NCBI GenBank assembly: GCA_963729045.1
Contig: CAVSMN010000010.1
Location: forward strand, 1-64,000
DNA length: 64,000 nt
Origin: an uncultured Nitrososphaeraceae archaeon
GTDB taxonomy: Archaea; Thermoproteota; Nitrososphaeria; Nitrososphaerales; Nitrososphaeraceae
Reading direction: 5' to 3'
Of this stretch, positions 34,900 through 55,218 are shown piece after piece; the first letter of the stretch is position 1; the number at the start of each line of letters is the position of its first letter. A model generated the notes under the pieces. It did no database searches, was not told the origin of the DNA, and saw only the letters and a program-made list of their open reading frames with translations. A program made the translations under genes and the position numbers.

Positions 34900-35230
34900 A
34901 AATGAAAAAATTGAACCTATTACACAATTGATATCTTCAAAAAAAGAAGCATTAGATATAATTTTTCTGTTTCTAATAGATTCAGATTTAGCCGACAAAT
35001 CTATTTATTTTCTATTTAGGACTAGTAGCATCAAGTTTATTATCTACATCATACAATCTTGTTTCATTCAAGTAATTCACAAATTCAATTAGGATTTTCA
35101 AATTATTAATATATGATCTTCAAATAACCCTTCTTTTCACATGCAATCATAAATATCATTAATAACAGAGGTATTATCTTTACTCTTTAGAGAATCAATA
35201 TTTTTTAAAAGTGTAGCAATATTGATGGAA
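34900..35230 (-). pseudogene. Integrase N-terminal remnant (paralog of 55030-55218)
   Basis: SINIATLLKNIDSLKSKDNTSVIND..NNLKILIEFVN. Clear nucleotide similarity to 55060-55218. Confidence 0.65.
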
Positions 35231-36074: not shown

Positions 36075-36882
36075 TCACTTATAGTGATTGATGCTAGTGT
36101 GTTCCTTTAAAACTTGTCTTGAGTCAAATGTTTGTCCACACGTTTCACAGGAAAAGGTTGCCTTTACATTTGTTGAACTTTCGTCTGAATTTCTTCCACT
36201 ATCAACTTCGAAACTATTCTGGCTACTTTGATTGACTGATGAACCTTCGCGTGTATGATTATCTGAATCTACCTTTGTCATTCCCCTCTTACGATATTCC
36301 TCTTGTGCTTCTGGCGTATCTGTACCAGTTTGTCCGCCTGAAGTAATTTGTTGATCATTGGGATCTCTCTTTACTGCTGTTGGTTCACCTGTGTTAATTT
36401 TAGCAGGAGTCATAGGTTCTTTATCTCTATACTCTTCTAAAGGATTGTCATTTCTACTTGTATCAGTACCAGGTCCGCCTTCTTCGTATATTCTATCTCC
36501 ACCAGAAGACTGTGCATGTCCGACAGAAGATGAAGCTATTGTATCTTTTGTCTTATTTGCGACATCTTTCGTAGTATCTACTACCTTGTCTTTAACATCA
36601 CCTAGCTTATCAGAGATACTGTCAAGAACTGATTCGCCGTAGTTCTCCCTTTTTTGTTCAAACATTTTAAGTTCGGATTCAGGTACTTTTCAACATTAAT
36701 TGTGTACCGTCATAGCCTTCAATCTTGGATTTCGGGATTGTGTATACATTTTCACTTACTTTATCTTTTTCTACTATAATTGAGTCATCTCTTTCACCAA
36801 TTATGTTTCCTACAATTTGACGATCTGATAAAACTACACCTTTTTTTGATACGATTAATTCTGAAAAATCTATATTTGACAC
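36075..36882 (-). CDS. PRC-barrel-like domain, LEA-like/hydrophilic region and C2H2 zinc finger (frameshift near 36680)
   Basis: N-terminal piece IVGNIIG..YTIPKSKIEGYDG, then VKDKVVDTTKDVANKTKD, ending CETCGQTFDSRQVLKEHTSINH. Confidence 0.7.
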
Positions 36883-37125
36883 GTTTAATTTGGTTCATAT
36901 AACTATATAAGGGTCATAATTTTTCAAATATTCATCAAAAATTAGATTTATCTCGATTAATATGGAAAATGACTGTTGCTAGTTACTACTTTTATATATT
37001 CTGCTCTACATTCATTACAAGCCCAGTATCTCAAATACAATCAGAGTATGCTACATTAGGTTGGACTCTAAAGTATTAGTAATCCTAATTATGGTACTAT
37101 ACAAACCATTTGCAACAATATAGTA

Positions 37126-37720
37126 ATGAAAAATCTTTCAAACATGTTTATGATTTTTCTAATCGCAGTTGGATTAGTAATAGTTCCTGTAATTAGTATG
37201 AATTCTGTAAATAGCGTGAATGCTCAAAATCAAAATCAAAATCAAACTTCGACACCAAATTCTCAAAATGATACAATGGCAACAATCACTGATAACCCTC
37301 AAACTACAATTGCAAATCAAACTACCATACCAGCAGAACAAACCACAGTTACTGTCAATCAAACGATTAACCCTATGGACCAATCTCAACTTCAACCACT
37401 TAGAATTCAGACAATAACATCTCAAACTGGAAACTTATCAAATATAGAAAATAAAACGGTAGTACAGACCACAGGTCCCGTCACTACTACTATTGCAAAC
37501 AAAACAACAGTACCGTTTAATCAAACTACTATGAGTATGGACAATATGACAAATTCCCAATCACAGGTATCCCCTTAACAGCAGCAGCAGCAATCGAGTA
37601 GTAATCAAACTGAAGGCGGATCATCGACTCAACAACAACAATCACCACCCCAAAATCAAAGTAAAGGACCGTTAGAACAACTTGGAGAATCCGTTAATAA
37701 AATGATAGTAGGCAGGGTTG
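37126..37720 (+). CDS. Secreted Q/T/N-rich repeat protein (premature TAA at 37576)
   Basis: Signal peptide and NQTTIPAEQTT / NKTTVPFNQTT repeats. After the TAA the frame continues to QNQSKGPLEQLGESVNKMI, as in the paralog at 45825. Confidence 0.75.
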
Positions 37721-38232
37721 ATATAGAAACTACTATCTCTCTTCGACATTTGTATTTTATTATAATCTTTCTTTTATGTAAATTTTATCCATAAATTAAA
37801 TAAATAAACCAATACCTGCGACAAATACCATGATAATATCATTAGATATTAGACAAATTGCTGATATGTTGATAATATGATTAACATATCTTGGGTCAAC
37901 GTTTATAGCGCCACCCTGTTGGGCGGCGTGGATATTTACGATTGAACCAAACTAATCGGTTAAATAGACAACCCTTATCACTCTTCTCGATAATGTTCAC
38001 ATTCTTAGCATTACAATAATATTGTTGCCAAGGATCCATACCAAGAGAACTATTCTATATTTATGGCTGAAAGCAAATCTAATAATCAGCCATTCTTTTT
38101 ACAATGTACAATAGAGATAACATGCAGACATAATGAGATAACAACAGACTCACAATCCTGAAAAATCCTGGACAACTTTTCTCAATGTTGTATCTGTTAT
38201 ATAACATGATGAACATCAGAATGTGAAAAAAA

Positions 38233-38493
38233 ATGAAGAAAATTTTAGTAATCGCGACTTTTGTTCTGTCATTTGTACTGACAGCATCACTAGTTAGCAA
38301 TTCAATAGTCCAGACGGCATTAGCTCAGGACTTATCCACTCTTAAAGATGAGGCAACAAACTTGCTGACAGGAAATGATAATAGCCAAAGAACAAATAAT
38401 AATTCAGCATCATCAACAACAAATAATTCTACTTCATCTGACTCATCCCTAACAGAAAAAGCAACTGGCTTAATAGGTGGATTATTAAAATAG
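38233..38493 (+). CDS. Small secreted low-complexity protein
   Basis: Signal peptide ending ALAQ, an N/S/T linker and amphipathic ends. Confidence 0.7.
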   Translation: MKKILVIATFVLSFVLTASLVSNSIVQTALAQDLSTLKDEATNLLTGNDNSQRTNNNSASSTTNNSTSSDSSLTEKATGLIGGLLK

Positions 38494-38889
38494 AAGACTA
38501 TCAAATCTAAAATAAAGTAAGTAAATATGCTACCTGATGAAGTTTCTCCTGAGGTACGAGATAGTCCATCTTGTTGTAAAAAGTATGATGGAAAAAACAA
38601 GAAGTAATTTGACAAGTCCTGTGGAGTTAGAGCAAGTTTACTTAGAGGCTTATAGGAGAGACACCAATAAAAAAATGTCCATTCAAATATAAAAATCCGC
38701 CGTCATGTAAGAGATATTTTACTTAGAAACGGCTATATTTTTGTTAATCCTGATGATGCAGAAGATGTATTCATCACGAAAAAAGCAATTGATCAATATG
38801 AGTTGATTAGGATGACTATATCTCTTGCCTGGTATTAAACACCAATTGATACCTGTGTTTATATAGTATATTGATTACGAATCCTTACA

Positions 38890-39518
38890 ATGTCTAAAAA
38901 CGATAAAAAAGAAATTAATGACCAAACTTCATCTTAGTTAACAAAAATATCGAGAAGCAGCAAGATATTTACCAAAGTAATCAAAGATTATATAATAGAA
39001 TTATAGAACAAAACAACGAATCACTTGAACAAGTTTTCGATGAGTCAAAAAAAAATATAGATGAAAGTATCAGAGAAGCAAGAAATCAGATTCCACGTTA
39101 TACTGAAACTGTTAATCAAGTTCAAGAACAAACACTTCAAGCTACTAAAGATATTGCAGAAAGCTATCTTGAATATCAAAGACAAACAATCGATTCTTTT
39201 CAATCAATATCTACCCCGTATATATACAATGTAAATAACCAATTATTGAATAACCAAGATTACTTTAGAAGAATACCAGAAATATACTCAAAATTAGTAA
39301 ATAATTATGCAGAAAATACAATAGCAATGAGTAGAATTTTTAATGATATGGCATTTTCTAATATTGAATTATTTAAAAATGTAGTTGATAACACAAAGAA
39401 ACAATCTAAACATCTTGCAGAAATAGGAAAAAGAAATGTATCAGCATATGAGAGAATCGAAAGAGACAGCAACGATGCATTATTATCAACTCAAAAAGAT
39501 CATCAGTCTAAAAATTAG
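38890..39518 (+). pseudogene. Alpha-helical (possibly phasin-like) protein with a broken 5' end
   Basis: ATG at 38890 with a TATA upstream, then an early stop/shift. A long open frame follows: FDESKKNIDESIREARNQIPRYT..IAESYLEYQ..IPEIYSKLVNNYAENTIA. Confidence 0.55.
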
Positions 39519-39878
39519 AAAAGAAAAATAAAATAATCTTTTCTTCTTTATTTCTATCAATATTTCATTTTTTTATAGTTTATAGGAATCTCTACTAAAT
39601 CTCATGAAATGGGGTAAATTGATCATCCAAGTCTGCTATTCTTCTGGATTACCATGAATTATGACTAATTGATAAACTATTCAATAATACGAAACAAGGA
39701 GGTTAGAAGCGTTACTATAAATAGATAGCTTCGTTCGGTGGGACAGCTTATGAAATTTCAGACTAGTCTGTAATTGGGAAAACCATCGCAGGTTGTACTT
39801 ATTTATCACTAATGGCTTATTTAAGCTATTTGAGAATATTTAGGATAACTTTATTATATTGCACGATATCCATAAGTC

Positions 39879-40071
39879 ATGACATTAAGTCTAAACTGTA
39901 AAGATGCAGGTGATCCTGTTTGCACTCATACGATGTATGGTGAAACTGAGGAAGAACTTTAGAGAATGCAAAAAAACACTTATAGAGGCTCACGGATATA
40001 CAGAAGAGACATTTAATGAACGAACCGGGAAAGACAAGGAGAACTTTAGAAAATTAATAAAAACTACTTAA
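39879..40071 (+). pseudogene. DUF1059-like small metal-binding protein (frameshifted)
   Basis: MTLSLNCKDAGDPVCTHTMYGETEEEL / ENAKKH / EAHG matches the C..C..H..H pattern of DUF1059. Confidence 0.7.
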
Positions 40072-40368
40072 CTTTTATGTCGCAATAATTTTTTTCAGAG
40101 ATAAGATCGAACCAATTCCTGTAAAATATGCAAGGACAAAATAAACTAATTAGTTTGTTTCTCCATCTTTCACAACACAATGATTCTATCAATTTGTAGT
40201 AATTTAATTACGATCGAATTTATGAGAATCTATTTTAGTTGCCCATTACTATATTGATTTCAATAATTATATGGAAAAATATTAATTTACTTTACAATCC
40301 TCATGCATAAGAACTGATTTATTATTTAAGACAACTTGTAACACTCGAACTAACTTTATATTGGAAGA

Positions 40369-40767
40369 CTATATCACTTCCTTAACCGAATTATCGTTTT
40401 CTACCTTGGTCATTCCTCTTTTTCGATATTCTTCTTGTGCTTCTGGAGTATCAGTCCCCGTTTGACCTTCTGCTGGTAATTATTTGGTCCGTTGAATCTC
40501 TTTTTACAGCCTTTGGTCCCTCCACTTTTAATTTAGCAGGAGTCATTGGTTCTTTATCTGAATATTCTGTTAATGGATCGCTTTTTCTGTTTGTGTTTGT
40601 GCCAGCTACACCTTCTTCATATTCTTTATCATTAGAGATTGTTGATGTTCTTAGTGATGAATCCACCGTATCCTTTGTTTTTTCGGCAACATCCTTTAGT
40701 AGTATCAACCACTGTATCCTTTGCGTCCTTTGACTTTTTCTTTGAGTTTGTCAATAATTTCTCCCAT
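40369..40767 (-). CDS. LEA-like hydrophilic protein, paralog of the 36075-36665 core (frameshifted)
   Basis: Shares KDTVVDTTKDVAEKTKD, YEEG..GT, PLxEYxDKEPMTPAK, AVKRD and TDTPEAQEEYRKRGMTKV. Confidence 0.7.
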
Positions 40768-41247
40768 TGATAATACAATTATTATTTAACATACTATAAA
40801 AACAGGGCTCAAATGGAGAGGGCTTTTTTTCAAAGGGTCAAAACAAAAACATTTTACTTAAGTTGTATGGATATAATGATTTCTAATTTATTATTTTAAA
40901 ACTATAATATGAAGTTGTTTCTGTAATCAGAATCAGTAATAAAGTTATTAAACTATTATTTACAGTATTTAGTAATAATACTAAACTAATACCCGTTACT
41001 ACGGCAATACTATCACCTAGTAAACTCTAGTATATATCTACAAAAGTATAATGATATTATATTATGAATCCAGATTTGATCTCGGTAGTAGGACAAAATC
41101 AAAATCAATACTATATTTTCTGACAGGAAATATAGTTAATTTATATAATCCGATAGTTTTTCTGAGATTTTCATGGTAATTATTATTCGGACTTCTTTGG
41201 TAGAAGTATTTTAAGTATGATATACTTTACTTTATGTATACAATAGA

Positions 41248-42460
41248 GTGGTTGCACATTTCAAAGTCTTAATGGTTTGTACCGAATATCCTCCCATGCA
41301 AGGTGGTGTTGGTCGCTATACTCACAACTTGGTTAAATCATTGCGCTCAAATAGTATAGACATCCTTGTTGTATCTAGTTCTGATGGTTCGGGAGACTAC
41401 AAAGGCATTTCACCACATAACAAGGACAATTCAGAGCTATTATTGAAATTAGTAAAAGAGATCAAGCCAGATATAGTACCATGTACAACACGAGTTCGGA
41501 CTGTATGGCTTTTTCTTAAATTCTCTACGACCTTCTAAATCATCAACAGGTCTTGACGAATTCTATGATAAATGTACGATCCCAATAGTAACCACATTTC
41601 ATACATCAATGTATTTTAAACAATGGATGCAATTAATAAACATAAAAGAAAAAGGTAATGATAATGACTATCTGAGATTTTACTCATTATATAAATACTG
41701 GCGACATTTTATTAATTATTCTTCTATGCATAGAATCAACAAATACCTTATGGCTAAGAGTGCTTATGGAATAGTTCTTTCAAATTACATGAGGGAACTC
41801 ATACCCGGAACAAAGGTGGTATATCATGGATCGGATCCATATTTCAAAACTGGCATTACACGCATTGAGGCGAGGAAGAAAATGCATCTTCCAGAGAAAG
41901 GAAAGCTTGCATTAGCTCAAGGATTCATTACCAATACTAAAGGATGGGATGTAATAAGAAAATTAAAAATGCCAAAGGATTGGAAGTTGGTGGTAAACTA
42001 TTCAAAGAACTTTTATAATAATGAAAAAATCAATTTTGAATATCATGACAATAAAGTGATTAATTTAAACAGAAGATACCTATCTGAAGAAGAACTCTCT
42101 TTATTGTTCTTTTCTTGTGATGTAGTATTCTTGCCCTACAAGGTGTGTTCTGGTTCAGGTATAATGTATGATGGCTTGGGACATGGACAACCGTTTGTGG
42201 CTTCTGATCTAGGTTTCTTTAAAGAGTTCTCAACACAAAATCTGGGTATTGTAACAAAGAGAGATCCTCATACATTCGAAAAGGCGTTTGAACAAATGGA
42301 TAAACAATACCTATTTTTCAAATCTAAAGTTAAAGACTTTCAAAAAAACTTACGCTGGGATAAAATAGCAGGACAACATATAACTATATACCAAAACATA
42401 ATAAAAGACGAAACACTAGAATCACAACCGGTAGAAATGATTCGTAAAAATAAGAGTTGA
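41248..42460 (+). CDS. GT4 family glycosyltransferase (frameshift near 41480)
   Basis: TEYPPMQGGVGRYT, IVTTFH, DVVFLPY and SG...PFVASDLGFFKE. Confidence 0.85.
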
Positions 42461-43352
42461 ACATACAGAATCATCCTGCCTTCAATTGTGAACTAATATA
42501 TGACAAGTAGAAAATCTCAGCTAAAGGGTTCTCTAAAAGAAACAGATGGGAACGTACGATACAGCAGGAATTCAGTGGGGTTCGAATCCATGAGGTATAT
42601 AGGACCTGTTATTTTAATAAATATTTGTAAATAAGAGTGGCTTAGTAATAGATGGATCATGGGTCTGTATTTTCAAAATATTCTTCGTTTAAATGTAATA
42701 TTTTCTCACTCTGTTAAACACAATAACTATGAAACTATCATACTGTCTGATTTAATGAAACTTGTCTAACAATCCCGAATTTTATCTACAGGGATCTACT
42801 TCATTTTATGGCATTATATGTTGGTTTTTTTAGAACTGGATTCAAAATACTGTCGTCATCATCTTCCGATCAATCAACGAATGGAAATAAAGGATATGTT
42901 GGAATATTATCGTCATCATACACATCTACTATCACTTACCTGATTTGTCAAATTGATATGCTTGTTTTTGGGATAGAATTATACTCCTTTTGTTACTTCA
43001 TACGCGTACAAATGGGCGACTGGAATATTGGGACAATACTTTTCAAAATACAATGACAATGATTCTAAATGTTGTTCATATATTATCTAATTATAACGGT
43101 TTTCTACTTCAAGTAATTTTTTAAACATATAAAATAATTTTTTCAAATCTTTAAATTTGAATAAATGATATAAAGCCAGACGGAAATGTGATAATACGGA
43201 TTGACATATTGATATATGCATTAATTCCAAACCGTAAAGAAATATCTCATATTTTTATTACTAATTGAATATATACACTATTAATAAACTATCATGAACA
43301 ATCAACTCAATGGTGAGGAAATCTAATTTCACCTAATGATTATGGCCAATTA

Positions 43353-43905
43353 ATGAATGCGAGAGAAGCAGCAGAGACTATTTCACAAAGTGAATATGGA
43401 CTGCATTGTTTACTAATTTATCGTGATCTTACTACTCTAAGAGAATTTTATTCTAATTATGTTCAAAAACAAATCAATGATAATGAAATGATTCAAATTA
43501 TGCCATTTTATGAAACAGAGAACTCTGTTAGAGAAATACTGTCAAAGAATTGGACCGCCGATCTTCATATGGTCCAAGAGGAGGAAAAATCATTGATCAT
43601 CGTTGATTCTTTAAGAGGATATCTTGATCATGATAATGTCGAATCCATTTGGAAAAATATTGAAGAAAGGGTCAACTATGCTAAAGAATTAGGTAAAAAG
43701 GGAATTTCCATATTAGGTGATGCGGGATGCATTTCTCTTTAAACATAAAATACAAAGTCTTTTGGATTACGAATGCTATTTGCCATTAAAATTTGAGAAT
43801 AATCTTAAGGGCATTTGCATGTATCATCAAAAGGATTTTAACAAGATATCCAAAGACTTTCAACAAAAAATAATAGATAGTCATTCAAAGACTATAGTGA
43901 TATAA
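43353..43905 (+). CDS. MEDS domain sensor protein (frameshift near 43730)
   Basis: GLHCLLIYRD, ISILGD and LLDYE..GICMYHQKDF..H. Confidence 0.75.
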
Positions 43906-43961
43906 ACAAGCCAACCAACCAATATCCTGATTTCTTATTTTTATTCTACTATAGTGTGCGC

Positions 43962-44341
43962 TTATAGAGATTCATTGAGCATTAGTCTCAAATCAGAAAA
44001 ACGGACGGGTTTTTGAATTAGTATATCTATTTTTGCCTTTTTAAAATCCTCGTTATTTTTTAAATCCACTATATCAAAAGCAGTCATCAAGAAAATTTTT
44101 ACTTTATTATTCATCTGTCTTATATTTTTTGCAAGATCTATTCCACAGATATCGGGCTTTCTCAAGTCCGTTACTATCAATGAATGTTTATCGGAAGTTT
44201 GCTTAAAATATTCAAAAGCCAAAACCGGGTCGGTGAAAGAGATTACATTGTACCCTTCGTTTCTCAAAAATCTTTGAAAAGAGTTACAAGTTCTAGTTCA
44301 TCATCCACTATAAGGATGGAATGTGGAGATAACTTTGACAA
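43962..44341 (-). CDS. Stand-alone response regulator receiver (frameshift near 44270)
   Basis: ILIVDDE, LIVTDLRKP, FLMTA and IQKP. Confidence 0.85.
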
Positions 44342-45430
44342 TAGGTATTGCTTTTATCAAAAATATTTAACTTTATCGAAATTATAGTCTTGCTCATATA
44401 ATTCTTGAATATAAGGGCACATAAATGAAGCTCAAATCCTATTTTAAAGCATTCATGATCATTACTTATATGAATCTCAAAAATATACAAACAATCTCCT
44501 TATCTTTAGTAAATTTCACTCATCAAGTGACTCTATCTTATTATTATAGAATTGTGATCAAGGCATAAATTTACTACAGTAATATAAAAATTAATAAAAG
44601 CCGAATTTTTCCTATTTTAATTCTTTTAACATATTTAATTAAGCTAATTCCCAGACGGCAAATGGATTCTATCAAAAATTTTACTCGATACAACACTTTA
44701 ACAAGATCTTTCAAATCATTTCCTTTAGCCTGATATTCTTTGCAAATTTATACCTGTGTATTAACCTATATTGACCAACTATTTTTGATGATAATTCATA
44801 TAATTTTACTAATATTGACTGTATCTTTCTCAACAGATGGCCTTGGCACAATTTATGCCCATCAAAACATTTCTGAAGAAATTTATAAGATGTTCGGTAA
44901 TTTGACACCGGATTATCTTGGATTCAAAAATTTCTCGTATGAACGACCTGGCGGTTTCTCAATAAGTTCCATGCCAAGCATCAATACAAGTAACAATTCA
45001 ATAACTGGTACACAATGATATTGGTCAAAGTTAGATGGACAAAGTTATTTTCTAGTAATTGAACATTTGTCAAAAAATTGTAAAAAAGAGCATCATTGTG
45101 AGAAAGCTAAAATTTTTCTGATATTTTTTAAAATACTAAACGCAGCTGCCTGACCACATAGAGATACTCAAATCTTTGTTTTTAAGGTTTGGAAAGGAGA
45201 GGCATCAAATAAGAAAATGTTTTCACATATCTTTATATTAATAACATTTACGACCAAAGAATAAAAATTAAATCTTAATAAATATTACTTGATGTTTTTC
45301 TAAAATATTATGGTTGATTCGTTCACTAAGAATTCGTAAGTCTGTTTATCATGTTGATATCTCATAAGGATTGTACTTTTATATCTCTGTCCAGATGGAA
45401 ACACAACTAATTATAATGATGTCTTCTAAC

Positions 45431-45494
45431 CAGAGATGAGGAATAGGGAAAAGCTGATGCACCTAACATATGAACATCTTATTCCTCATCTCTG
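45431..45494. repeat. Perfect 15-bp inverted repeat with 34-nt spacer
   Basis: CAGAGATGAGGAATA ... TATTCCTCATCTCTG. Confidence 0.85.
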
Positions 45495-45824
45495 AGTAAT
45501 GTAGTTGTCCCTTCGAGTCTTGTAGAGGTAAATATCTAGGTTTAAGATAGTATTTAATGACAATAATAAAACAGAATACATAGGGAAGAGGCAACAACAA
45601 CACAACCTCGTTAAGTTGGTATATGGACTAATATTTACCTCAATCCCACAATGAAATCCGCTGCTTGTATTCTAATATAAAATGTATACGATAGTTTATA
45701 ACCATAATAAAGTGAGATAGAGAAACTGTAGCCACAGATTGGATTCCATATTCTTACTGTTAAACCATCTGTAGTGATGTGCTAATTTATTAGCTATTTA
45801 AGTAATAAAACATAAGACCAGATA

Positions 45825-46399
45825 ATGATAAGATCAAGTATACTTACTCTCTGTGCTATTGCACTTTTTGCTAGTCTTGTATTCACAGGAATAGTTTATG
45901 CACAAAACCAAACCCAAAACCAGACATCGTCTCAGGCTGCATCACAAAACGAAACTATGGCCACTGTGACTGACAAACCTCAAACGGTAATAGCAAACCA
46001 AACTACTGTTCCGGCTGAGCAAACAACAGTAACAGTTAATCAAACAACTGAACCAATTAAAGATCAATCTCAATTACAACCACTACAAAACCAGACTATA
46101 TCTTCTCAAACTGGAAATCTATCTAATATAGAGAATAAGACAATGGTACAACCAACTGGACCTGCAACCACAGTTATAGCGAATAAGACAACAGTCCCAT
46201 TCAATCAAACTACTATAGGTATGGATAACACAACCAATTCACAAACACCATCAGCAGGACAAGCTCAACAACAACAAGCTCAACAACAAAATCAATCAGG
46301 ACAACTCAACAACAACAAGCTCAACAACAAAATCAATCTAAAGGTCCTATAGAACAAATGGGAGAGTCTTTAAACAAGATGATAGGCGGAGGCAAATAA
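45825..46399 (+). CDS. Secreted Q/T/N-rich repeat protein (frameshift in the Gln repeat)
   Basis: Paralog of 37126. The corrected frame ends QNQSKGPIEQMGESLNKMIGGGK*. Confidence 0.8.
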
Positions 46400-46887
46400 T
46401 CTTATACTTATTTCTTACAATTCGTTAGCATTTATTCAATACCGTTTTTCATTATTTCATCAATTTGTAAACAATTAATTATATTAGTTAAGTTGGCAAT
46501 TTGCACGCACTAGGAGAAGAGCGAAGATGATGTTATACATCAAATTTCATGCTATCGACTATAATGTAGAGATGGAAAATAATCAGAATAACTCAAAAAT
46601 CGACTTGTCCATATAGAATTAGACTAATTGAATATCAAGTAACAGAACAAGGCTTGCTATCTGAAATAGATGCAATAATATTTGATGTTTGGAAAATGTA
46701 TGAATTCATAATAGTCAGACAATTAATTGTTACCCGCGTCAATCAACTACATGGGATGTGTAAATTCAACAGCGATTAACGATGTTTATAGTATTTTCTA
46801 ATTTCTGCATGATATTACCAACAGATACATCATCCCGATAACTGATAGTACATGTATATAAACTATTATTAATAAAGTTTCTTGGAT

Positions 46888-47055
46888 ATGCTTGGAACAC
46901 TTTGGACAATTATTTTGATTATAATAGCAATTATCGTCATAGTACTGTTACTACGGTTTCTTTTTGGAATATTAGTTATAGCTCCTGTAGGGATGGAATT
47001 CGTTAAACCTGGCACAACTACCGATATAGCATGGTCAATAGTTAATGGCATCTAG
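46888..47055 (+). CDS. 55-aa small membrane protein (below the ORF-track cutoff)
   Basis: MLGTLWTIILIIIAIIVIVLLLRFLFGILVIAPVG..., with TATATAAA ~33 nt upstream. Confidence 0.65.
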   Translation: MLGTLWTIILIIIAIIVIVLLLRFLFGILVIAPVGMEFVKPGTTTDIAWSIVNGI

Positions 47056-47629
47056 TTAGTTGACGAAATGGCACCTGGGTTAGAACACCTATTGTAGAAT
47101 GTTACTAAGATTAAATGGTTATAACATACCGTATTTTGTATTCTATTTGCCATCATAGTAAATAGTGTTATCGGGTTCATTATCTCGATGATTGTCGATA
47201 AATATTATTAGCATTATATTAGATCTAGAGATGAAATGATTCTTCTTAAAAAATATACAAGCAAATGAAATAGGACCATAGCATTCAGCTCTGTCCTACG
47301 GGAAACCCGTCGACATCAAGTAAATTTCACGGTGTTCTCGATAGGGCATTAAGAAAAAGATATATCAATTAGGAAAAATTTTTCAATGTCTTTCATCACG
47401 CAAGAATTGCGATAACAGAATTGATACATGAGCCTATAATTACAGTAATAATAAAATATCAAATATTGTAAAAGATGTGAATAAGTAGGAATAACAAATC
47501 ATCTTTGTTAATTACCCTCTCGTGGTAATTTGATATATAAAATAAAACCTTTTTTCAAACTAATACAACCTCGGTGATTAAGGGAGTGATTGTATGTCCC
47601 TTCAAGTTTTATTAGAAACTTTTATCTAG

Positions 47630-47659
47630 AGTATTACCCTTTATAGTATTACCCTTTAT
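47630..47659 (+). promoter_or_regulatory. 15-bp tandem direct repeat upstream of the YsnF-like gene
   Basis: AGTATTACCCTTTAT twice. A related palindrome AATTACC-N7-GGTAATT lies at 47510-47530. Confidence 0.4.
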
Positions 47660-47708
47660 ATTATACTACCTTATTTATCTATTTATAGCATGTTATATTA
47701 AATATTTT

Positions 47709-48392
47709 ATGAGCTCAAATATTGATTGGACGGATGTCATCAAAAAGGAAGCCAGAGGCATTAATGATGCTGATTTTGGTGAGGTTCAAGAACTAACAAC
47801 TGAATTCGTCATAACTCAGAGAGGATTGATTGATGTAGAAGTATTTGGCATACCCAAAGAAAGGGCAGAAAGTTATGATGGAAGCGTATTGCGATTTAAT
47901 GTTTCTGAAGATGAAGCTTTCAGTAAATATCGAGAAGGCGGAGAAGATACCGCTGAAACACTTTCACAAGAAGAAGAGGTTTCAACTATAGACGAGATGG
48001 AAACTCAGTTACAATCCAACCAAGATAATGAAACAGAGGAATCAACTACGGTACCTCTCATGGAGGAAAGAGTAGATATTTCAAAAAGAATCGAGGAAGA
48101 CACTGCTACTATAACCAAAAAACCAATAACAGAAACCAAAACAATAGAAGTACCGATAACTCATGAAGAAATAGCAATTGAAAGAAGGAAACCTTCTGGA
48201 GAGCAAACTTATACCGAACAAAAACCAGTCACCTCTCAAGAAGAGATAGAAATACCAGTAAAGAAAGAAGAAATTGAAGTCAACAAAAGACCATATGTTA
48301 AAGAGGAATTGGTGGTAAAAAAGAAACCAGTAACTGAAACAAAAGAAATTACAGAAGAAGTGACATCTGAAATGATACCTACAGAAGATTAA
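47709..48392 (+). CDS. PRC-barrel-like plus YsnF/AvaK (DUF2382) domain protein
   Basis: IDWTDVIKKEARG..FGEVQE..IPK..YDG, then VPLMEERVDISKR..IEVPITHEEIAIERR..IPVKKEEIEVNKRPYVKEELVVKK. Confidence 0.85.
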   Translation: MSSNIDWTDVIKKEARGINDADFGEVQELTTEFVITQRGLIDVEVFGIPKERAESYDGSVLRFNVSEDEAFSKYREGGEDTAETLSQEEEVSTIDEMETQLQSNQDNETEESTTVPLMEERVDISKRIEEDTATITKKPITETKTIEVPITHEEIAIERRKPSGEQTYTEQKPVTSQEEIEIPVKKEEIEVNKRPYVKEELVVKKKPVTETKEITEEVTSEMIPTED

Positions 48393-48665
48393 AAATAATA
48401 CTATTCTTCTTGGTGGTAGAAATTAATTTATCTGGTTCTAATTTTATGAGTATTGAACATAGTTTTTTAACATCCTATATACACTTTAAGTTCCCACACC
48501 AGATAAATTTATTTTTTGTAAACTTTACTAGTTTGTGCAACATATGAAATAAAATTTTAGTTATTATGTATTAAGGCTATCTAGTATTTGAACATAGTAT
48601 CAAAGTATAAGTCAGAATATTATATCGCATAAAAGTCAAAAGTTATGGGGGTATTGTATTTCCGC

Positions 48666-49346
48666 CTATCTTGGAACTTTTACCTTGAACTGGCTTAATC
48701 TATCGTAGGTTGTATTTAGAACTACCTCTTGTCCATTGTAGGATTGAATTTCGTTTTTTGGTATACTAAATTCATCTTTAGCACCATCAGAAGTTATTAT
48801 TACATTTTCATCGTTTACTGCTGTAACAATGCCTACTGCTACAGAATCCCCTGTCCGTGCACCCTTTTTGAGAACAGAGTCCCAGTCTTGTATGCCCGCA
48901 TGAGGCCTGGTATACGATGCATCAGTTCCGACACTATCTATTTGTCTTTTCTCAATGAGAGGAATATACTTTTGAAGATCTCGCGAAGATTCTGATTGAT
49001 CGTATGTTTGTGTGTCGGGTTGTTCTGTTACGGATGCTGACTTGTACCTTGAATACTCACCCATCTGTGGTGGTTCATCTTTTTTGAAATTGTCTTCAGC
49101 TTCTTGTTCGGTTATATTAAACCAAAGAACTTCCCCATCATAACCTGCAACTAATACTTTAGGTAAATAAAATTTGTTTTTATTGAGTCGACCTCTTTCT
49201 GTTACAACAAATTCCTGTCCGATTTCTTGCACCTCACCTAAATCATCTCCTTTCTCATATCCTCTTGCTTCTTTTTTAATAATGTCTTTCCATTCTATGC
49301 TATTATCTTTCCAGTTAAAATTACTTGAATTAGTATTATTGTTCAT
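48666..49346 (-). CDS. Tandem PRC-barrel-like domain protein
   Basis: Two copies of W..(I/V)(I/L)KK.AR..G.V..V...(L/I)PK....Y(D/N)G. Confidence 0.75.
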   Translation of the reverse strand: MNNNTNSSNFNWKDNSIEWKDIIKKEARGYEKGDDLGEVQEIGQEFVVTERGRLNKNKFYLPKVLVAGYDGEVLWFNITEQEAEDNFKKDEPPQMGEYSRYKSASVTEQPDTQTYDQSESSRDLQKYIPLIEKRQIDSVGTDASYTRPHAGIQDWDSVLKKGARTGDSVAVGIVTAVNDENVIITSDGAKDEFSIPKNEIQSYNGQEVVLNTTYDRLSQFKVKVPR

Positions 49347-50322
49347 AATCTAAATTGATTAATAAAGTATTTAACAGCCAGTATTAGAATAATTTAGTTT
49401 ATCTGAAGATTAAACCAAAAGTTACAAATTTATTTTTCTGTTAAAAACAAAAAAAAGAACAACATACTATTAATATGCAACAACGGTTATGAATAAAAAC
49501 TAATATGTTGTCATCGGTTGCATTGCTATCAAAAGTCGTTTGCAATATACCCAGTGCTCATTCTATTACTGTTACGAACACATTCAAACATATCCACATC
49601 CCAGAGAAAAACTTGAGATTCCAAAATAGTCATTGTTGGATTTTTCTGAAAGATTTATTTAGAACAAACGTAGCGAATCAAAGAGAGAAACATTGTCAAA
49701 CTAATACATTAAGAATCAGCATGGTAAGACATTATTGTTAATAATAGTAAAAGTAACAGGTCTAGCTATCCTCTAGAATGGAGAATAAGCCTTGATGACA
49801 TCAATAACGCCGCCTAGTAGGCAGCACTTGACAGTAAAATTACCAATACAACCATACAAAATATCGAATTGGAAATCTTTCAATATTTTTACTCCTGTAA
49901 AATAATAATGATTGCTTTCTGATTGATATTTAACATTGACGTTGATTTTTCCACTATATCTTTTTGTATATTTTTGTTTGTTGTCTAGATGGAAAAGGAT
50001 CGCAAATATTATTTTGTACGTTAAGAATCCCGTTATTACCGTCAATGCGGAGTTAAGCACATAATTAGTGAAATACTGAGCAGAAAAGTGTGCAATAATT
50101 ATACTTGACAGAAACCCTATCGTACCCGAAAAAAGTAGATTTTTATTTAAAGATATCGTGTAGTATATTTCTGATAAGACTGTAGGAGGAATTCACTTAT
50201 TTTATGCATTATTGCCGTCACAGTAATATGTCTTGAATTGTTTAATATGTTATTTAACCATCAACAATATATTATTTCTAGGTATTAATGCAATAAATAA
50301 GAACAATTAATACTTAAATTTA

Positions 50323-50613
50323 TTATTGATTCTTTTGTTCGTTTGAAAACTCTTTCGCGGTATCTACAACAGTATCTTTAACTTCTAAAGCTTTTTGTTT
50401 AGCCTGGTCCAATATTCCATGTTTCTCATTACCGTAATTTTTAAGATCATTTTGCTTCTTTTGTACCTCATATTGTATGTATTTCATATCTTTGGAGTTA
50501 ACGAAAACCGGATATCTCTCAAATGTCGCTACCTCATTATTTTCTAGCCTGATCTCAATCTTACCTATTCCCTTTTTTATTTGGTCGGTATTTTCTTCTT
50601 TAATTTTGATCAA
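50323..50613 (-). CDS. Small protein with LEA-like C-terminal helix
   Basis: LDQAKQKALEVKDTVVDTAKE shares the (V/A)KD(T/K)VVDT motif with 36075 and 40369. Confidence 0.55.
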   Translation of the reverse strand: MIKIKEENTDQIKKGIGKIEIRLENNEVATFERYPVFVNSKDMKYIQYEVQKKQNDLKNYGNEKHGILDQAKQKALEVKDTVVDTAKEFSNEQKNQ

Positions 50614-51020
50614 TAATTTAGGTGTATATCACAGTTAATAAATATGATAAAAACAAGATGCGATATATAAAAGATGGACGGTATAATTTTTTGGGAAATA
50701 ATATAAATTCTTATCCATACAGATTGAGCATCACGATGTGTTGATAAATATGGATTCGATACTATTATGCTGGAGAATATTGAAATACCCTTTGTCATAA
50801 ACTAACTTTAAATTCTCATCAAAAATTAATACAGGGTATTTAATATGATACTTCACCTACTAACCACTAAATATGGTAATTAGTAAATACACTATCTTAC
50901 TTTTATTTAGGATTAAACAAGTGTTGCTTTAGTGTATTTAAGAAAAACAAGTACAAAAATCAACAGATAATACTCAGAGGTATGGTATACCATTATAAAT
51001 ATTAATAATATAAAGTACCT

Positions 51021-51770
51021 ATGAATAACGAGTCTATAGTCCCGCATGACAATAAAATTACACCTGTTAATGATAGTCCTCCTTCCATAGACACTAAATC
51101 CCAGCAGGAGGAACTAATTGTAGAAAAGATTCCAATCTATGAAGAAGAATTTGATATTTCTAAAGAGACTACAAAGACACAATTGTATTTAGAAAAAAGA
51201 TGGATAAAATCAACAAAAAAGATTGAAGTCCCCATCAATTATGAGGAGATGTTTATCAATGGAAAAGAATTTGACTCCTACAGCCACAATGAATTAGTCG
51301 AGATTTTTTCAAAGGTAAAGGAAAAAATTTCAGAAGTGTTTCATCCTAGCCAAACTGAAGGAGATGAAGAACTACCCGATAAGATAGTGAATAGAGATGA
51401 TCGCCATTATCCAAATGATCTGGACATAAAGATACACGAAAACGAGGAAACAATAAAAGCAAAAATGAGCCAGACCGATTATGAATCTAGTCAGAGTGAA
51501 AAAAGGCCACCACTACCCAATTCTGAAGCTAGTGTAAATAATAATCAGATTCAAGTTTCTGATAATAACAATAACAATAATGACTCTGAAGAAGAACAGG
51601 TTATTCCTATTTGGGGAGAACAAATAATAATAGATAAAAAAATGGTAAAGCTCGGCGAAATAGTTATTAAAAAATCTCGAATATCCGAAAAGCGCAAGGT
51701 AGGTGTAGAAGTCAGAAAGGAAAAAATTACTGTCAAATATCCTGATGGCAAGAATCAAGAAATTACCTAA
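51021..51770 (+). CDS. YsnF/AvaK (DUF2382) domain protein with acidic insertion
   Basis: IPIYEEEFDISK..IEVPINYEE and IPIWGEQIIIDKKMVKLGEIVIKK..VEVRKEKI. Confidence 0.8.
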   Translation: MNNESIVPHDNKITPVNDSPPSIDTKSQQEELIVEKIPIYEEEFDISKETTKTQLYLEKRWIKSTKKIEVPINYEEMFINGKEFDSYSHNELVEIFSKVKEKISEVFHPSQTEGDEELPDKIVNRDDRHYPNDLDIKIHENEETIKAKMSQTDYESSQSEKRPPLPNSEASVNNNQIQVSDNNNNNNDSEEEQVIPIWGEQIIIDKKMVKLGEIVIKKSRISEKRKVGVEVRKEKITVKYPDGKNQEIT

Positions 51771-51812
51771 TATTTAGAACATGAATATATAATATGTTAT
51801 ATAGAAAAATTT

Positions 51813-52590
51813 GTGACTACTAAGGATGAATTATTAAAATCTAAGAATATTAATCTCGACGACATCATAAAGAAAGAAGTCATAGGAATTGATGGGCTAG
51901 ATTTAGGAAAAGTAATAGAGATAGGGGAGACGTACGTTGTCACCCAAAGAGGTTTAATAGATAAGAAAAAATATCATCTCCCAATTTCATCGATAGAAAG
52001 TTTTGACGGAGAATTTTTGAATTTGAAGATTAATGAGACTGATTTAAAAAGTTATGAACAAACAGAGGATAATTTATTCGAAGGATATTCTTCTTTTAAA
52101 TCTTCAGACATGTCACATGAAGTACAGACAACTATTCCATTAATAGACGAGAAATTAGAAGTAACTAAAAAGACTATCGAAGAAAACATGCAAATAATAA
52201 AAGAACCCATAAAGGAAACGAAAATTGTAGAGATCGAGCTAATACACGATAAAGTTACAATAACGAAAAGACCATTCAAAGAAAATAATATTGCAAAGAA
52301 AATCGAATCCCACAGTCATAAATTAGAAAGTAATTCTTCAGATAGCCAGATAGACAAAAGAAGAAGAAGAAGAGGATATGAGGAACTATGATGACACTAC
52401 TGAAATAATTATGACACTTGAAAGAGAAGAACCCATTATAGTTAAAAGATCCCATGTCAAGGAAGAAGTGATAGTAAAGAAAGAAACTTTATTTGAAACA
52501 AAGACAATAACAGAAGAACTAATTCATGAACATATGAAATCTAGTGATATCGAACCTACAAGAGTAAAAGATAGGAATACATCAAATTAG
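51813..52590 (+). CDS. PRC-barrel-like plus YsnF/AvaK domain protein (frameshift at the GAA repeat ~52360)
   Basis: IIKKEVIGIDGLDLGKV..LP..SFDG, then IPLIDEKLEVTKK. The second ORF has LEREEPIIVKRSHVKEEVIVKK. Confidence 0.8.
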
Positions 52591-53214
52591 CCAACAACAG
52601 GATGCTACTGCATTTAAATCGTAGTTTGATAAGTCTAATGATAGAATATAGGCATTGTAGTCCGATATATTTTAGAACCTCTTCACATGGTAGAATTAAT
52701 CCGTATTTATTAAATCGGTCGTTATTTCATACTGCAAAGATATTATGGTTTTTCTTACATTATTGCATATTTCATTGATATAATATTATAGTCATCTTCA
52801 ATTTCCTTATTTCTCAAATACTATTTTGGTCATCATTTTAAAATAGTTTTTTGTCTATTTGCTCCATGTACTTTTCTTGTTTGTTAGAAGTATTGTCATT
52901 ATCCATATTAATTTAAAATCACAATAACTTTAATTATTCGCACAGCGTCGGATTTCATATGCATTGGGCATAGTATTCAAGCTGAATCTGCAAAATTCTT
53001 GATAAATGAGAATAGACTAAAATGAGATTTAAGGTCATCTAATGAAATAAAATCTAATATTTTAAACTTAAAAAAAGTCAAGACAAATAATTGTCCATAA
53101 TTGTCAAAAAAATAAATTTCAAAGTATCTAGATGGTTGTAAAATACAAGAATATAGATACGTGAAATTAGAATTTTATCAACCATATATAATTTGTTAAA
53201 TAAATACATTCAAT

Positions 53215-53973
53215 ATGTCATCTGAAAATGACAATGAAATTAATTGGAATGAAGTTGTAGGAAAAGAAGCACTCGGAGAGAATGGCTTAGACTTTGGTAC
53301 GATTAAAGATATATCGGATGACTATATCGTTACCGAAGTAGGTATGCTTAAAAAGAAAATATACCACCTACCAAAGAGTTCTGCAAAATACTTTAACGGA
53401 GTTTTCCTAAACTTCTCGCTAAATGAATCAGACCTTTCAACTTATGAACAAAAGATTGGAGAAGGTGCCTTTAATGAAGATTCTTTTTCCGGATTACAGG
53501 ATATGCCAGCAAAAAAAGAAATGTTAATTCCTTTGATCAGTGAAGATCTAAAAGTAACCAAGACAATTATTGAAGATAATATAAGAATTGTAAAAGAACC
53601 CATAAAGGAAACGAAAACTGTGAAAATTGAGTTGATGCATGAAAAAGTAACAATTGAAAGAAGAGATGTCAGCATGAATGACGATAGGCTTGACAAAGGA
53701 ACAAATATTAATTTAAATAATAGTAAGACCTCTAATCAAGGACCTAACCAGGAATCGGATAGCGAAGGTTCAATGTATTCAAAGACTGAATTTTTGATTC
53801 CAATCAAAAAAGAGGAACCATTAATTACAAAAAAATCATTTGTTAGAGAGGAATTAGTAATAAACAAAAAACCAATAACTGAAACTAAAACAATAGCAGA
53901 AGAAATAACTAAAGAAGAAGTTAAGTACGACAATCAAGTGATAGAAAAAACTAAAGATGGAATACCTCTATAG
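53215..53973 (+). CDS. PRC-barrel-like plus YsnF/AvaK domain protein
   Basis: INWNEVVGKEALGENGLDFGTI..LPK, then IPLISEDLKVTK..HEKVTIERR..IPIKKEE..VREELVINKK. Confidence 0.85.
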   Translation: MSSENDNEINWNEVVGKEALGENGLDFGTIKDISDDYIVTEVGMLKKKIYHLPKSSAKYFNGVFLNFSLNESDLSTYEQKIGEGAFNEDSFSGLQDMPAKKEMLIPLISEDLKVTKTIIEDNIRIVKEPIKETKTVKIELMHEKVTIERRDVSMNDDRLDKGTNINLNNSKTSNQGPNQESDSEGSMYSKTEFLIPIKKEEPLITKKSFVREELVINKKPITETKTIAEEITKEEVKYDNQVIEKTKDGIPL

Positions 53974-54313
53974 CATAAATATTATTTTGTTTTGTTAATT
54001 AGAATCATTTCTTATACACAACATTGATTATCAAGTATTTGAATTGTCTCTATTACTATAGCCAAAGGACCTTTAGAGGATCTTTTTTAATTGATGAGGT
54101 TTGACATAAATCTCTAAAAATGTGAGAAATTTCGATATTATTTGGTATCGAAATGGCTTGTTCTCTTATATCAATGATTCCCTTAAGATTTTATTACTAA
54201 ATTCGAGTCTCTCATCATAGATAATATAATGAATCTGACTGTGCTCTTGTCTTGTGAAAAAATAATAAACTATGTATTGATTATTTATGCTATGTTATAC
54301 ATATCATTTTACA

Positions 54314-54535
54314 ATGTCTGAAAATCAGGACAATGAAAAGACCGAAAATCGTGGGGAAAAACTTCTTGACGTTACCAATGAGTATAATGAAAATGAAAGA
54401 CCTCAAGATGAATCTGAGAGCGTTTTAGACGAAGCGGTAGATAAAGTAAAAGCAGGAACGAAAGCAGTCATCAACAAGGTTAAGGATTCTGAAAAAGACC
54501 TTGGTGCTGAATATAACAAAGAAAAGACAATTTAG
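54314..54535 (+). CDS. Small hydrophilic LEA-like protein
   Basis: MSENQDNE..VLDEAVDKVKAGTKAVINKVKD. The second ATG (54314) is preferred over 54287. Confidence 0.6.
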   Translation: MSENQDNEKTENRGEKLLDVTNEYNENERPQDESESVLDEAVDKVKAGTKAVINKVKDSEKDLGAEYNKEKTI

Positions 54536-54816: not shown

Positions 54817-55025
54817 TTATGCAGTTATCAAATCAAGACTTACACTTCTTCCTGATATTCTATATCTGCTTTTCTTCTCTGATGTGAGGCAATACTTTTT
54901 TGCAAAATGGGTATACAAAATAAATTCATTAGGACTAGTGTTAAGAAAGTAAATCTGATTGAAACCGCTTCTAAAGTATTCTTCAAGTGGTTTTATCAAA
55001 TCTTTTACTGATGTTACTATTAGAG
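54817..55025 (-). pseudogene. C-terminal remnant of an F420-dependent LLM-class oxidoreductase
   Basis: VTSVKDLIKPLEEYFRSGFNQIYFLNTSPNE resembles the C-terminus of LLM-class enzymes. Confidence 0.45.
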
Positions 55026-55029
55026 TAGA

Positions 55030-55218
55030 CTATTTTAGCGGTTTGTCCTCACTATGTAAATTCACGTATTCTATTATAACTTTCAAATTATTGATTATAT
55101 GATTTTCAAATAACCCTTCTTCTCGCATGTAATCATAAAAATCATTAATAACAGAGGCATTATCTTTACTATTTAGTAGATCAATCTTTTTTAAAAGAGT
55201 AGAAATCTTAATGGACAT
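55030..55218 (-). pseudogene. Integrase N-terminal remnant adjacent to the tRNA 3' end
   Basis: NASVINDFYDYMRE..ENHIINNLKVIIEY is a SAM-like N-domain. It starts ~160 nt downstream of the tRNA and is truncated. Confidence 0.65.

Follow-up and report, generated by a model that had tools for sequence, protein, structure and literature searches.

We analyzed a 64,000-nucleotide stretch of DNA from an uncultured Nitrososphaeraceae archaeon (GCA_963729045.1, contig CAVSMN010000010.1, positions 1 to 64,000; hereafter the window), and in particular the interval 36075-54535, the island, in which an earlier note had recognized a stress or resting-cell module. In our judgment, the right half of the island (~47.7-54.5 kb) probably represents an array of AvaK/YsnF-type genes that arose by ancient duplication, has been conserved and serves in protection against water stress in a Nitrosocosmicus-like soil archaeon. 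A gene at 36.1-36.9 kb, which encodes a PRC-barrel-like domain, a hydrophilic region and a zinc finger (the PRC-hydrophilic-zinc-finger gene), and its broken paralog belong with this array. The cluster is real, conserved and typical of its lineage, and makes a credible candidate for a role in desiccation stress, less coherent and less exotic than at first reading.

DUF2382 domains and the AvaK/YsnF family

The DUF2382 domain (PF09557; Pfam cut-off 23 bits) scores 65.8 bits in the protein encoded at 47709-48392 (AvaK1), 50.9 at 53215-53973 (AvaK3) and 43.8 at 51021-51770 (the DUF2382-only protein), and in AvaK2 (51813-52590) it is split over two frames that score 17.5 and 25.4 bits. The four domains of this type listed in the earlier note are all present, three above the cut-off and the fourth divided by a frame break. 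With the TIGR02271 model 'YsnF/AvaK' (cut-off 49.75), AvaK1 lies above the threshold at 58.5, and the proteins at 53215 (47.0) and 51021 (34.1) lie below it. The AvaK1 structure model, its Foldseek matches and the Pfam match to DUF2382 together give the architecture of the cyanobacterial protein AvaKa, in which a PRC barrel stands N-terminal to DUF2382. Homologs in Ca. Nitrosocosmicus are publicly annotated (NCBI, JGI) as 'YsnF/AvaK domain-containing protein'. We class the genes that combine PRC and DUF2382 as AvaK/YsnF-type genes, a family and a name already known for these archaeal genes. Proteins of the cluster have a grand average of hydropathy (GRAVY) of -0.69 to -1.27, and charged residues make up 30-39% of them. 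The protein that has two PRC-like domains (2xPRC) and the hydrophilic, Q/T/N-rich, p96 and 54287 proteins listed in Table 1 received no name in an NCBIfam scan.

The small N-terminal domain

Six copies of a domain of ~65 amino acids (aa) lie where the earlier note had placed them, at 36679-36882 (-), 47709 (+), twice within 48666-49346 (-), 51813 (+) and 53215 (+), and they are true paralogs (blastp E values of 7.5e-7 to 5e-21; alignment A1). An AlphaFold2 model was built for AvaK1 on an alignment of 58 sequences; AvaK1 is the only one of the six that was modeled, and the others are assigned by paralogy. Residues 11-70 of the model form six strands at a predicted local distance difference test score (pLDDT) of 86-91, and a disordered linker follows at residues 77-110. 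The top Foldseek match of the N-terminal domain in the PDB is 3htr_A (E 3.1e-3; template modeling (TM) score normalized to the target, 0.51), followed by 8onw, 3h9n, 2f1l, 2gnu_H and 1pm3. Target-normalized TM scores range from 0.46 to 0.60, with a sequence identity of 8-16% to CdpB1/2, CdvA and RimM. To our recognition, the matches listed are PRC-barrel proteins, among them 3htr, CdpB1/2, RimM, reaction-centre H, MTH1859 and CdvA.

The relatives of the domain point in the same direction. With a profile of 33 N-terminal domains (A4), the number of representative clusters matched was 1370 at E <=1e-3, and 465 were matched at E <=1e-10. In a sample of 116 sequences, made up of 115 of the best 150 matches to this profile and AvaK1 itself, DUF2171 was found in 33 (best E 3.5e-16), PRC in 4 and DUF2382 in 22, and single members are fused to Usp or to DUF892. 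DUF2171 (PF09939) and PRC (PF05239) presumably belong to one PRC-barrel clan. On the structure model and on transitivity through the family, the small domain is predicted to have the PRC-barrel fold. A prediction of a complex of two AvaK1 copies, run on alignment A3 without controls, gave a score of 0.00, which speaks neither for nor against self-association.

One could envision from the same fold matches that the PRC-barrel proteins are adaptors of the cytoskeleton or of cell division, like CdpB1/2 or the PRC domain of CdvA, with no role in stress. CdpB1/CdpB2 of A. fulgidus (8onw, 8qzo) and CdvA of S. islandicus (9s9g) are among the matches, and the two-PRC protein could mimic a CdpB heterodimer. 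However, these matches are no better than those to RimM or reaction-centre H, and CdpB1/CdpB2, CdvA and RimM, which have the same small beta-barrel fold in Foldseek, lack DUF2382 and stand in another genomic context. The PRC domains of the AvaK-type genes, unlike those of the division adaptors, are fused to DUF2382 in the AvaK architecture. Pfam and NCBIfam scans found no Cdv or FtsZ gene in the island, and multi-copy arrays of fast-diverging paralogs are atypical of division machinery. We consider a division role very improbable and continue with the genes as an AvaK-type array.

Host, conservation and age of the duplications

The closest named relatives of the 47709 protein are from Ca. Nitrosocosmicus sp. 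T (80% identity), franklandus (75%) and arcticus (58%), and the 7.1-kb contig L001, from a metagenome-assembled genome (MAG) of the Nitrososphaerales, is 97.8% identical to the window at the nucleotide level. Because of these protein and DNA identities, we take the host to be a Nitrosocosmicus-like member of the soil clade of Nitrososphaerales, in agreement with the soil host proposed earlier.

When species-representative genomes were scanned once with the alignment of AvaK1, 79 loci were obtained, all from Nitrososphaerales, and these are the basis of the locus counts given below. At least two PRC-like domains are found in 31 of them and at least one extra PRC or DUF2382 segment in 46; among loci of at least 15 kb, 16 of 24 have such extra segments. 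A core of six genes lies at 47.7-54 kb, comprising AvaK3, AvaK2, the DUF2382-only gene, p96, 2xPRC and the AvaK1-type gene. Its gene content is the same in L021, L012 (N. agrestis) and L001, and L008 (N. sp. FF01) has it without 2xPRC; the 2xPRC protein is 83-92% identical in L005, L012 and L021. The clustering that the earlier note had assumed thus holds in relatives, where homologs are grouped rather than scattered and the core recurs in four loci.

The ratio of nonsynonymous to synonymous substitution rates (dN/dS) was sought in nine gene comparisons, each against L001 or L021. It is 0.05-0.47 in eight of them; p96 has zero synonymous differences from L001 and hence no ratio. The core is under purifying selection. 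In a quick maximum-likelihood tree (IQ-TREE) of 102 AvaK-type open reading frames (ORFs), AvaK2 and AvaK3 fall in sister clades of six rows each (support by the Shimodaira-Hasegawa-like approximate likelihood ratio test (SH-aLRT) of 98 and 98; joint clade, 100), and AvaK1 falls in a separate clade of seven rows (SH-aLRT 100). Because each of the three clades includes several Nitrosocosmicus genomes, the duplications are old. The expansion by local duplication proposed earlier holds only in the sense of ancient events, as the AvaK2/AvaK3 split and the AvaK1 clade predate the divergence of the sampled Nitrosocosmicus genomes.

Three loci (L007, L017, L046) come from MAGs labeled 'Nitrosopumilus sp.' (MGR_bin297, MGR_bin428), and they nest inside Nitrosocosmicus clades and have Nitrosocosmicus-like neighborhoods. 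The label may be wrong. Since their AvaK-type genes nest in Nitrosocosmicus clades, these loci provide no evidence for the family in marine lineages.

The hydrophilic zinc-finger protein and its relatives

The ORFs at 36679-36882 and 36075-36665 were described earlier as two genes, a 67-aa PRC protein and a 196-aa hydrophilic protein. This separation has to be given up: they form one intact gene of 268 aa in the relatives P0122 (96% identity), P0124 and P0138 (Nitrosocosmicus sp. T), which is split in the window by an extra base near 36678. The 268-aa protein consists, in order, of a PRC-like barrel, a K/D/T-rich helix (KDKVVDTTKD), a long stretch that is acidic and disordered and, at the C-terminus, a putative C2H2 finger of the pattern C-x2-C-x12-H-x4-H, present as FSCETCGQTFDSRQVLKEHTSINH. 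Pfam scores for C2H2 (PF00096) are 16.6-20.7 against a cut-off of 25.2, with 17.1 for the window protein. Atlas clusters near the protein are all from Nitrososphaerota. In N. agrestis, the 267-aa protein of L012:3502-4305 (-) combines a helical module of the p90 type with the same ~45-residue C2H2 tail. Because this tail is found on a PRC-hydrophilic or on a phasin-like part, the finger behaves as a movable module of this neighborhood.

Four proteins had been called LEA-like, after the late embryogenesis abundant proteins. They are indeed strongly hydrophilic (GRAVY -1.11 to -1.27; the 36075 protein, -1.27), and a KDxVVDTTK helix is common to three of the four, but no LEA or YtxH cut-off is reached. 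Membership in LEA_4 (PF02987) was rejected at 13.8 against 51.1 (the 50323 protein), with a single helix motif and no tandem 11-mer repeats, and membership in YtxH (PF12732; cut-off 37.5) at 12.9 for the window, with homologs reaching no more than 20.8. JGI labels one homolog of the hydrophilic protein ElaB/YqjD/DUF883. Hydrophilins and LEA group 3 proteins, YtxH and ElaB/YqjD/DUF883 are likewise very hydrophilic and charged, with a short amphipathic K/D/T-rich helix, whereas the archaeal helix is single and fused to a PRC-like domain and a C2H2 finger, and all matches are below cut-off. Hydrophilins and LEA proteins, YtxH and ElaB/YqjD are associated with stress in their own organisms.

These resemblances raise the possibility that the proteins are ribosome-associated hibernation or maturation factors, in which the PRC barrel would bind a ribosomal protein as RimM does and the helices would act like those of ElaB/YqjD/YtxH, stationary-phase proteins that bind ribosomes or membranes. 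Such a role would still be one in stress, but with a particular, different target. The best fold matches include C-terminal domains of RimM (3h9n, 2f1l, 7cq1, 3a1p), and the JGI label and the weak YtxH matches, the best of them at 20.8 bits, fit it as well. On the other hand, all of these similarities are under the family cut-offs and no ribosomal or translation gene lies in the island, and we regard a ribosomal target as improbable compared with a general protective role of the AvaK-type array.

For p96, the structure model from 26 sequences is poor (pLDDT 55.5), and an Atlas search for this protein gave a best score of 0.79 and no usable lead. In p90, the open frame continues upstream beyond the TTG at 39246, and no canonical start is present there.

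A promoter-like motif

The sequence TATARNWTGTTA has five exact matches in the window, where 0.63 are expected and five were reached in 1 of 100 shuffles, and all five are inside the island, between 40.8 and 53.2 kb. Four of them, at 40787-40798 (second hydrophilic copy), 47684-47695 (AvaK1), 51788-51799 (AvaK2) and 53187-53198 (AvaK3), begin 20-28 nucleotides (nt) and end 9-16 nt before the respective gene starts. In archaeal promoters, a spacing of 20-28 nt fits the TATA box of leaderless transcripts. A slightly looser pattern occurs in Nitrosocosmicus-like loci upstream of 17 of 64 family genes as compared with 3 of 113 control ORFs, and in all loci upstream of 17 of 131 family genes as compared with 4 of 369 controls. 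The AvaK-type genes of other Nitrososphaeraceae have CAAGTATTAAAT in its place, at about -30; TTAAAT occurs in the -30 bin of these sequences at 0.32 per sequence, against 0.04 in controls. The motif is suggestive only, as a hint at possible co-regulation.

Two of the three control matches are one orthologous short-chain dehydrogenase gene within the AvaK cluster of L006 and L008 (L008:12524-13414 (+), motif at -25; L006:5150-6043 (+)), where the motif is TATA-proximal. Short-chain dehydrogenases are typical of bacterial general stress regulons. One is among the entries of the RpoE2 regulon table of S. meliloti (PMC6180224).

The fifth exact copy, TATAGGATGTTA at 48468-48479 (-), lies between the convergent AvaK1 and 2xPRC genes and points antisense into the 3' end of AvaK1, with no ORF of at least 20 aa behind it; it could be a chance match, a promoter of an antisense or small RNA, or a relic. 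Two other patterns were rejected. A first guess at the promoter, ACCCTTTATA, from a tandem repeat upstream of AvaK1, had 8 matches against 7.2 expected and was dropped as unenriched, and the looser TATAN{1,3}WTGTTR had 10 against 6.7, which is overall not significant. A tandem direct repeat, GTATTACCCTTTATA, is present in two copies 15 nt apart at 47620-47665 (+), ~50-90 nt upstream of AvaK1. Immediately before the repeat (window 47604-47629), where the alignment contains many gaps, L001 carries additional bases. The rest of the window shows no enrichment of the 10-mer.

Frame breaks

At least eight genes of the island are frame-broken or lack a start, namely PRC-hydrophilic-zinc-finger, DUF1059, the second hydrophilic copy, GT4, MEDS, receiver, AvaK2 and p90. 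QTN2 may also be broken, with a one-base difference from L001 at 46305, near its 3' end. GT4 lies in frames 1 and 2, MEDS in frames 3 and 1, and the second hydrophilic copy (40390-40778) in at least two frames, with the break at about 40450-40710; DUF1059 is broken at about 39955, and AvaK2 is broken by an extra A at 52356 relative to L001. Outside the island, TruD (24350-25681, +) has its N-terminus in a frame other than that of its 343-aa ORF, and a mannosylglycerate-hydrolase-like gene (7257-10009, +) is spread over three ORFs. The density of breaks is higher in the island than in the flanks. Because these two genes outside the island are broken as well, we read the breaks as most likely errors of sequence or assembly. 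In the ATPase gene of an ABC transporter at 32200-33280 (+), the frame is open upstream of the first ATG and encodes the Walker A segment (GPNGAGKT) there. No ATG, GTG or TTG precedes that segment, and the cause may be a non-canonical or damaged start, as in p90.

The breaks bear on the alternative that the interval is no single module, being instead a gene-poor, AT-rich and partly decayed region of lineage-specific genes and pseudogenes in which only the AvaK paralogs are related to one another. At least eight breaks or missing starts in 18.5 kb are what such a region would show, as are a GC content of 0.29-0.34 with long non-coding gaps (0.29-0.37 across the window) and the sparse linkage of the Q/T/N, GT4, MEDS and DUF1059 genes to AvaK loci (2-5 of 79). 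The receiver is linked in 12 of 79 loci, a number that may reflect chance because receivers are abundant in these genomes, the baseline being uncalibrated. Against this, the breaks are not specific to the island, close relatives (P0122, L001, L012, L017, L021, L030) have these genes unbroken, dN/dS is well below 1 and the core content is kept across genomes, and the hydrophilic zinc-finger gene is linked in 16 of 79 loci across several AvaK clades. That the interval as a whole is no module is, in our view, unlikely, and we retain the conserved array for the right half and the zinc-finger gene.

Left half of the island and flanking genes

Table 1. Genes of the island, with the number of the 79 loci that hold homologs.
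Feature	Position	Strand	Loci with homologs (of 79)	Remarks
PRC-like domain + hydrophilic region + C2H2 zinc finger	36075..36882	-	16, over several AvaK clades	split here into 67-aa and 196-aa ORFs; 268 aa in relatives
QTN1, secreted, Q/T/N-rich, 10 N-X-S/T sequons	37126..37578	+	5	loose link to core
Secreted S/T/N-rich peptide, 86 aa	38233..38493	+		L021 homolog at 85% identity
p90, helical, phasin/apolipoprotein-like	38925..39518	+	4	Phasin_2 19.1 against cut-off 24.9
DUF1059-like small cysteine protein, frame-broken	39879..40071	+		27-aa N-terminal piece aligns to L044 DUF1059
Second hydrophilic copy, type of ~143 aa without zinc finger	40390..40778	-		55% identity to 36075 copy; repeats D5, D7; compare P0195
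GT4-type glycosyltransferase, frame-broken	41248..42460	+	3-4	Glyco_transf_4; break between 41478 and 41480
MEDS-like putative sensor domain protein, frame-broken	43353..43905	+	4-5	break near 43720
Stand-alone receiver domain	43962..44330	-	12	PF00072; ILIVDDE segment out of frame, break at T-run near 44270
QTN2, secreted, Q/T/N-rich, 12 N-X-S/T sequons	45825..46352	+	5	78% identical to QTN1; locus count joint with QTN1
Hydrophobic membrane peptide, 55/57 aa	46882..47055	+	4	GRAVY 1.75; dN/dS 0.08 against L001
AvaK1: PRC-barrel + acidic disordered linker + DUF2382	47709..48392	+		Pfam, TIGR02271, model; dN/dS 0.05
2xPRC: two PRC-like domains, without DUF2382	48666..49346	-		paralogy; dN/dS 0.09-0.18
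p96: two predicted strands, then helices ending in KDTVVDTAKE motif	50323..50613	-	7	narrow family, 38 matches
DUF2382-only: two partial DUF2382 copies, without PRC	51021..51770	+		Pfam 43.8 bits; kept in L001, L008, L012, L021
AvaK2: PRC + DUF2382, split here	51813..52590	+		extra A at 52356; single frame in L001, L012, L021
AvaK3: PRC + DUF2382	53215..53973	+		Pfam 50.9 bits
Acidic, very hydrophilic protein, 82 aa	54287..54535	+	4 (short matches)	GRAVY -1.25; no Pfam/NCBIfam match

The genes to the left of the core (Table 1) include the two secreted Q/T/N-rich paralogs and the small hydrophobic membrane peptide, both of which are as described in the earlier note. Other labels given there fare less evenly. 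The pieces of the GT4 gene score 21.6 with PF13439 (cut-off 28.5), and the intact ortholog in L017 (53-66% identical) scores 35.4. For the pair of a MEDS protein and a receiver, the truncated receiver ORF is above the PF00072 cut-off (41.8 bits against 30.2; 66.8 in the L009 ortholog), but MEDS (PF14417, cut-off 29.8) is below it both in the window (20.5) and in the intact ortholog of L030 (25.5). The DUF1059 (PF06348) label is weaker than it had been made: neither piece of 39879-40071 has a Pfam match, although the 27-aa N-terminal piece is 48% identical to L044:12229-12405, a bona fide DUF1059 protein (83.9 bits). The L044 gene is close to an AvaK-type gene, and another DUF1059 gene is found in L052. 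We regard the Q/T/N, GT4, MEDS/receiver and DUF1059 genes as neighbors whose link to the core is weak or unproven.

The flanks hold archaeal genes, including CDC48, PCNA, TFS, TyrRS, AsnRS, a NurA-like nuclease and enzymes of the cobalamin pathway. Scans for tRNA genes and Rfam families found no match across the window. No amo gene is present in the window, and ammonia oxidation itself is, therefore, without a direct sign on this DNA. Small ORFs at the edges and in the gaps of the island (55030-55218, 54817-54999, 34837-35092, 44740-45018, 49505-50060 and 42808-43056) match no Pfam family; for 55030-55218 (-), a likeness to an integrase N-terminus is no more than an impression and is unsupported. 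The flanks also hold an exopolyphosphatase gene at 19681-20847 (-) and the mannosylglycerate-hydrolase-like gene at 7257-10009 (+). Mannosylglycerate is a compatible solute that has been discussed for ammonia-oxidizing archaea (PMC7554672).

Discussion

The favored role of the AvaK-type cluster would be protection against water stress, because its architecture is common with bacterial proteins that provide experimental anchors and because its products are extremely hydrophilic. One anchor is AvaKa of Anabaena PCC 7120, a protein with a PRC barrel and DUF2382 that is indispensable for regrowth after dehydration (PMC9804601). That paper describes four AvaK paralogs, of which two are adjacent; salt and drying induce all four by way of the response regulator OrrA. 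It also cites the enrichment of avaK genes in cyanobacteria of terrestrial habitats, the sensitivity of a Deinococcus DR1314 mutant to peroxide and to heat, and the original discovery of AvaK as a marker of akinetes (PMC9804601). In S. meliloti, the RpoE2 general stress regulon likewise includes a PRC-barrel protein (PMC6180224).

The Nostocales AvaK proteins (AvaKa all4050, AvaKc all4051, AvaKb, AvaKd and the A. variabilis akinete marker) resemble the archaeal proteins in PRC + DUF2382 architecture and in the family name YsnF/AvaK. Further likenesses are the several paralogs per genome, two of them adjacent in the cyanobacteria, and enrichment in terrestrial relatives. They differ in belonging to another domain of life, and the archaeal N-terminal domain is a divergent DUF2171-like branch that stays under the Pfam cut-offs. 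The archaeal array is larger, with three AvaK-type genes together with 2xPRC, the DUF2382-only gene and p96, and has partners so far seen only in Nitrososphaerota. YsnF of Bacillus and DR1314 of Deinococcus have DUF2382/TIGR02271 in common with the archaeal proteins, and a stress regulon or a stress-sensitive mutant is known for them, whereas the gene neighborhood of the archaeal locus differs. YsnF of Bacillus subtilis is part of the SigB general stress regulon. To our knowledge, Archaea have no SigB-type sigma factor.

The mechanism that we consider most likely for the array as a protective system is the following. The genes would be switched on together as water activity falls upon drying or in salt, and their products would accumulate in the cytoplasm. 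Docking would be the part of the PRC barrel, which could bind each protein to a partner or to further PRC proteins. The charged, extended DUF2382 and disordered segments might serve as hydrophilic shields and so prevent the aggregation of macromolecules as cells lose and regain water. One of these shield proteins may be tethered to nucleic acid by its C2H2 finger.

Several observations weigh against this interpretation. No copy of the small domain in the window reaches a Pfam cut-off of the PRC clan (0 of 6); the best score is 24.0 against 25 for DUF2171 (second domain of 48666), with 14.5 for 51813 and nothing for 36679. The PRC-barrel call of the earlier note is thus carried by the fold model and by relatives, but not by Pfam in the window. 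Foldseek gave no match at E <=1e-3 for the AvaK1 N-terminal domain in the PDB, and PDB sequence-profile searches with alignments A3 and A4 gave no significant match. The DUF2382 region of the AvaK1 model is mostly coil (pLDDT 62-79), and because of this the 'extended shield' is read from output that carries little information. The promoter motif is absent from 2xPRC (0 of 9), DUF2382-only (0 of 7) and most AvaK1-type genes (present in 4 of 84), it was defined post hoc from the sites on which it is tested, and orthologous promoters are not independent; as it is the sole basis for co-regulation, the description 'coherent, co-regulated' was an overstatement. If the frame breaks were real, the locus would be decaying in this strain. 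The likeness to AvaKa lies in architecture and family name, we know of no biochemical function for the characterized AvaK/YsnF proteins, and the stress role that the archaeal members may have rests entirely on comparison. The main texts of papers on ammonia-oxidizing archaea that deal with air-exposed growth, biofilm, skin, adaptive traits, gene duplication and ancestral reconstruction leave these families unmentioned, although supplements may list them; one of these papers discusses LEA14-like WHy proteins, which are a different family.

Of the stress or resting-cell idea with which the analysis began, the stress part has an experimental anchor, by analogy, in Anabaena AvaKa (PMC9804601), which the earlier note did not cite, and the resting-cell part found no evidence in its favor. 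Full-text searches, partly of top-ranked results only, found no paper describing YsnF, AvaK, DUF2382 or PRC-barrel proteins in ammonia-oxidizing archaea, in line with the earlier note, which knew of no characterized archaeal equivalent. The conserved array, the PRC-hydrophilic-zinc-finger family, p96 and the candidate promoter signature were likewise not found described in literature searches.

A broader proposal, which we find conceivable but doubtful, is that soil Nitrososphaeraceae own an archaeal counterpart of the bacterial general-stress regulon, made up of leaderless genes with a TATA-proximal signature (TATA-RN-WTGTTA in Nitrosocosmicus, CAAGTATTAAAT in other genera) that would serve survival of drying. 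Its members would be the AvaK-type and multi-PRC genes, a nucleic-acid-tethered family of PRC-hydrophilin-like-C2H2 proteins, p96 and the short-chain dehydrogenase. If true, this would help to explain why this clade dominates over the marine one in dry and air-exposed habitats. The candidate shared promoter signature could be a means of delimiting a stress regulon in archaea for which genetic manipulation is difficult.

The PRC-hydrophilic-zinc-finger, p96 and two-PRC proteins are accessory families so far seen only in Nitrososphaerota. The locus extends the PRC + DUF2382 protein type across domains of life, which would improve the odds of finding its function. Ammonia-oxidizing archaea of the Nitrosocosmicus and Nitrososphaera type drive nitrification in soils that dry and re-wet, and the genes described here are testable candidates for how they may survive drying.

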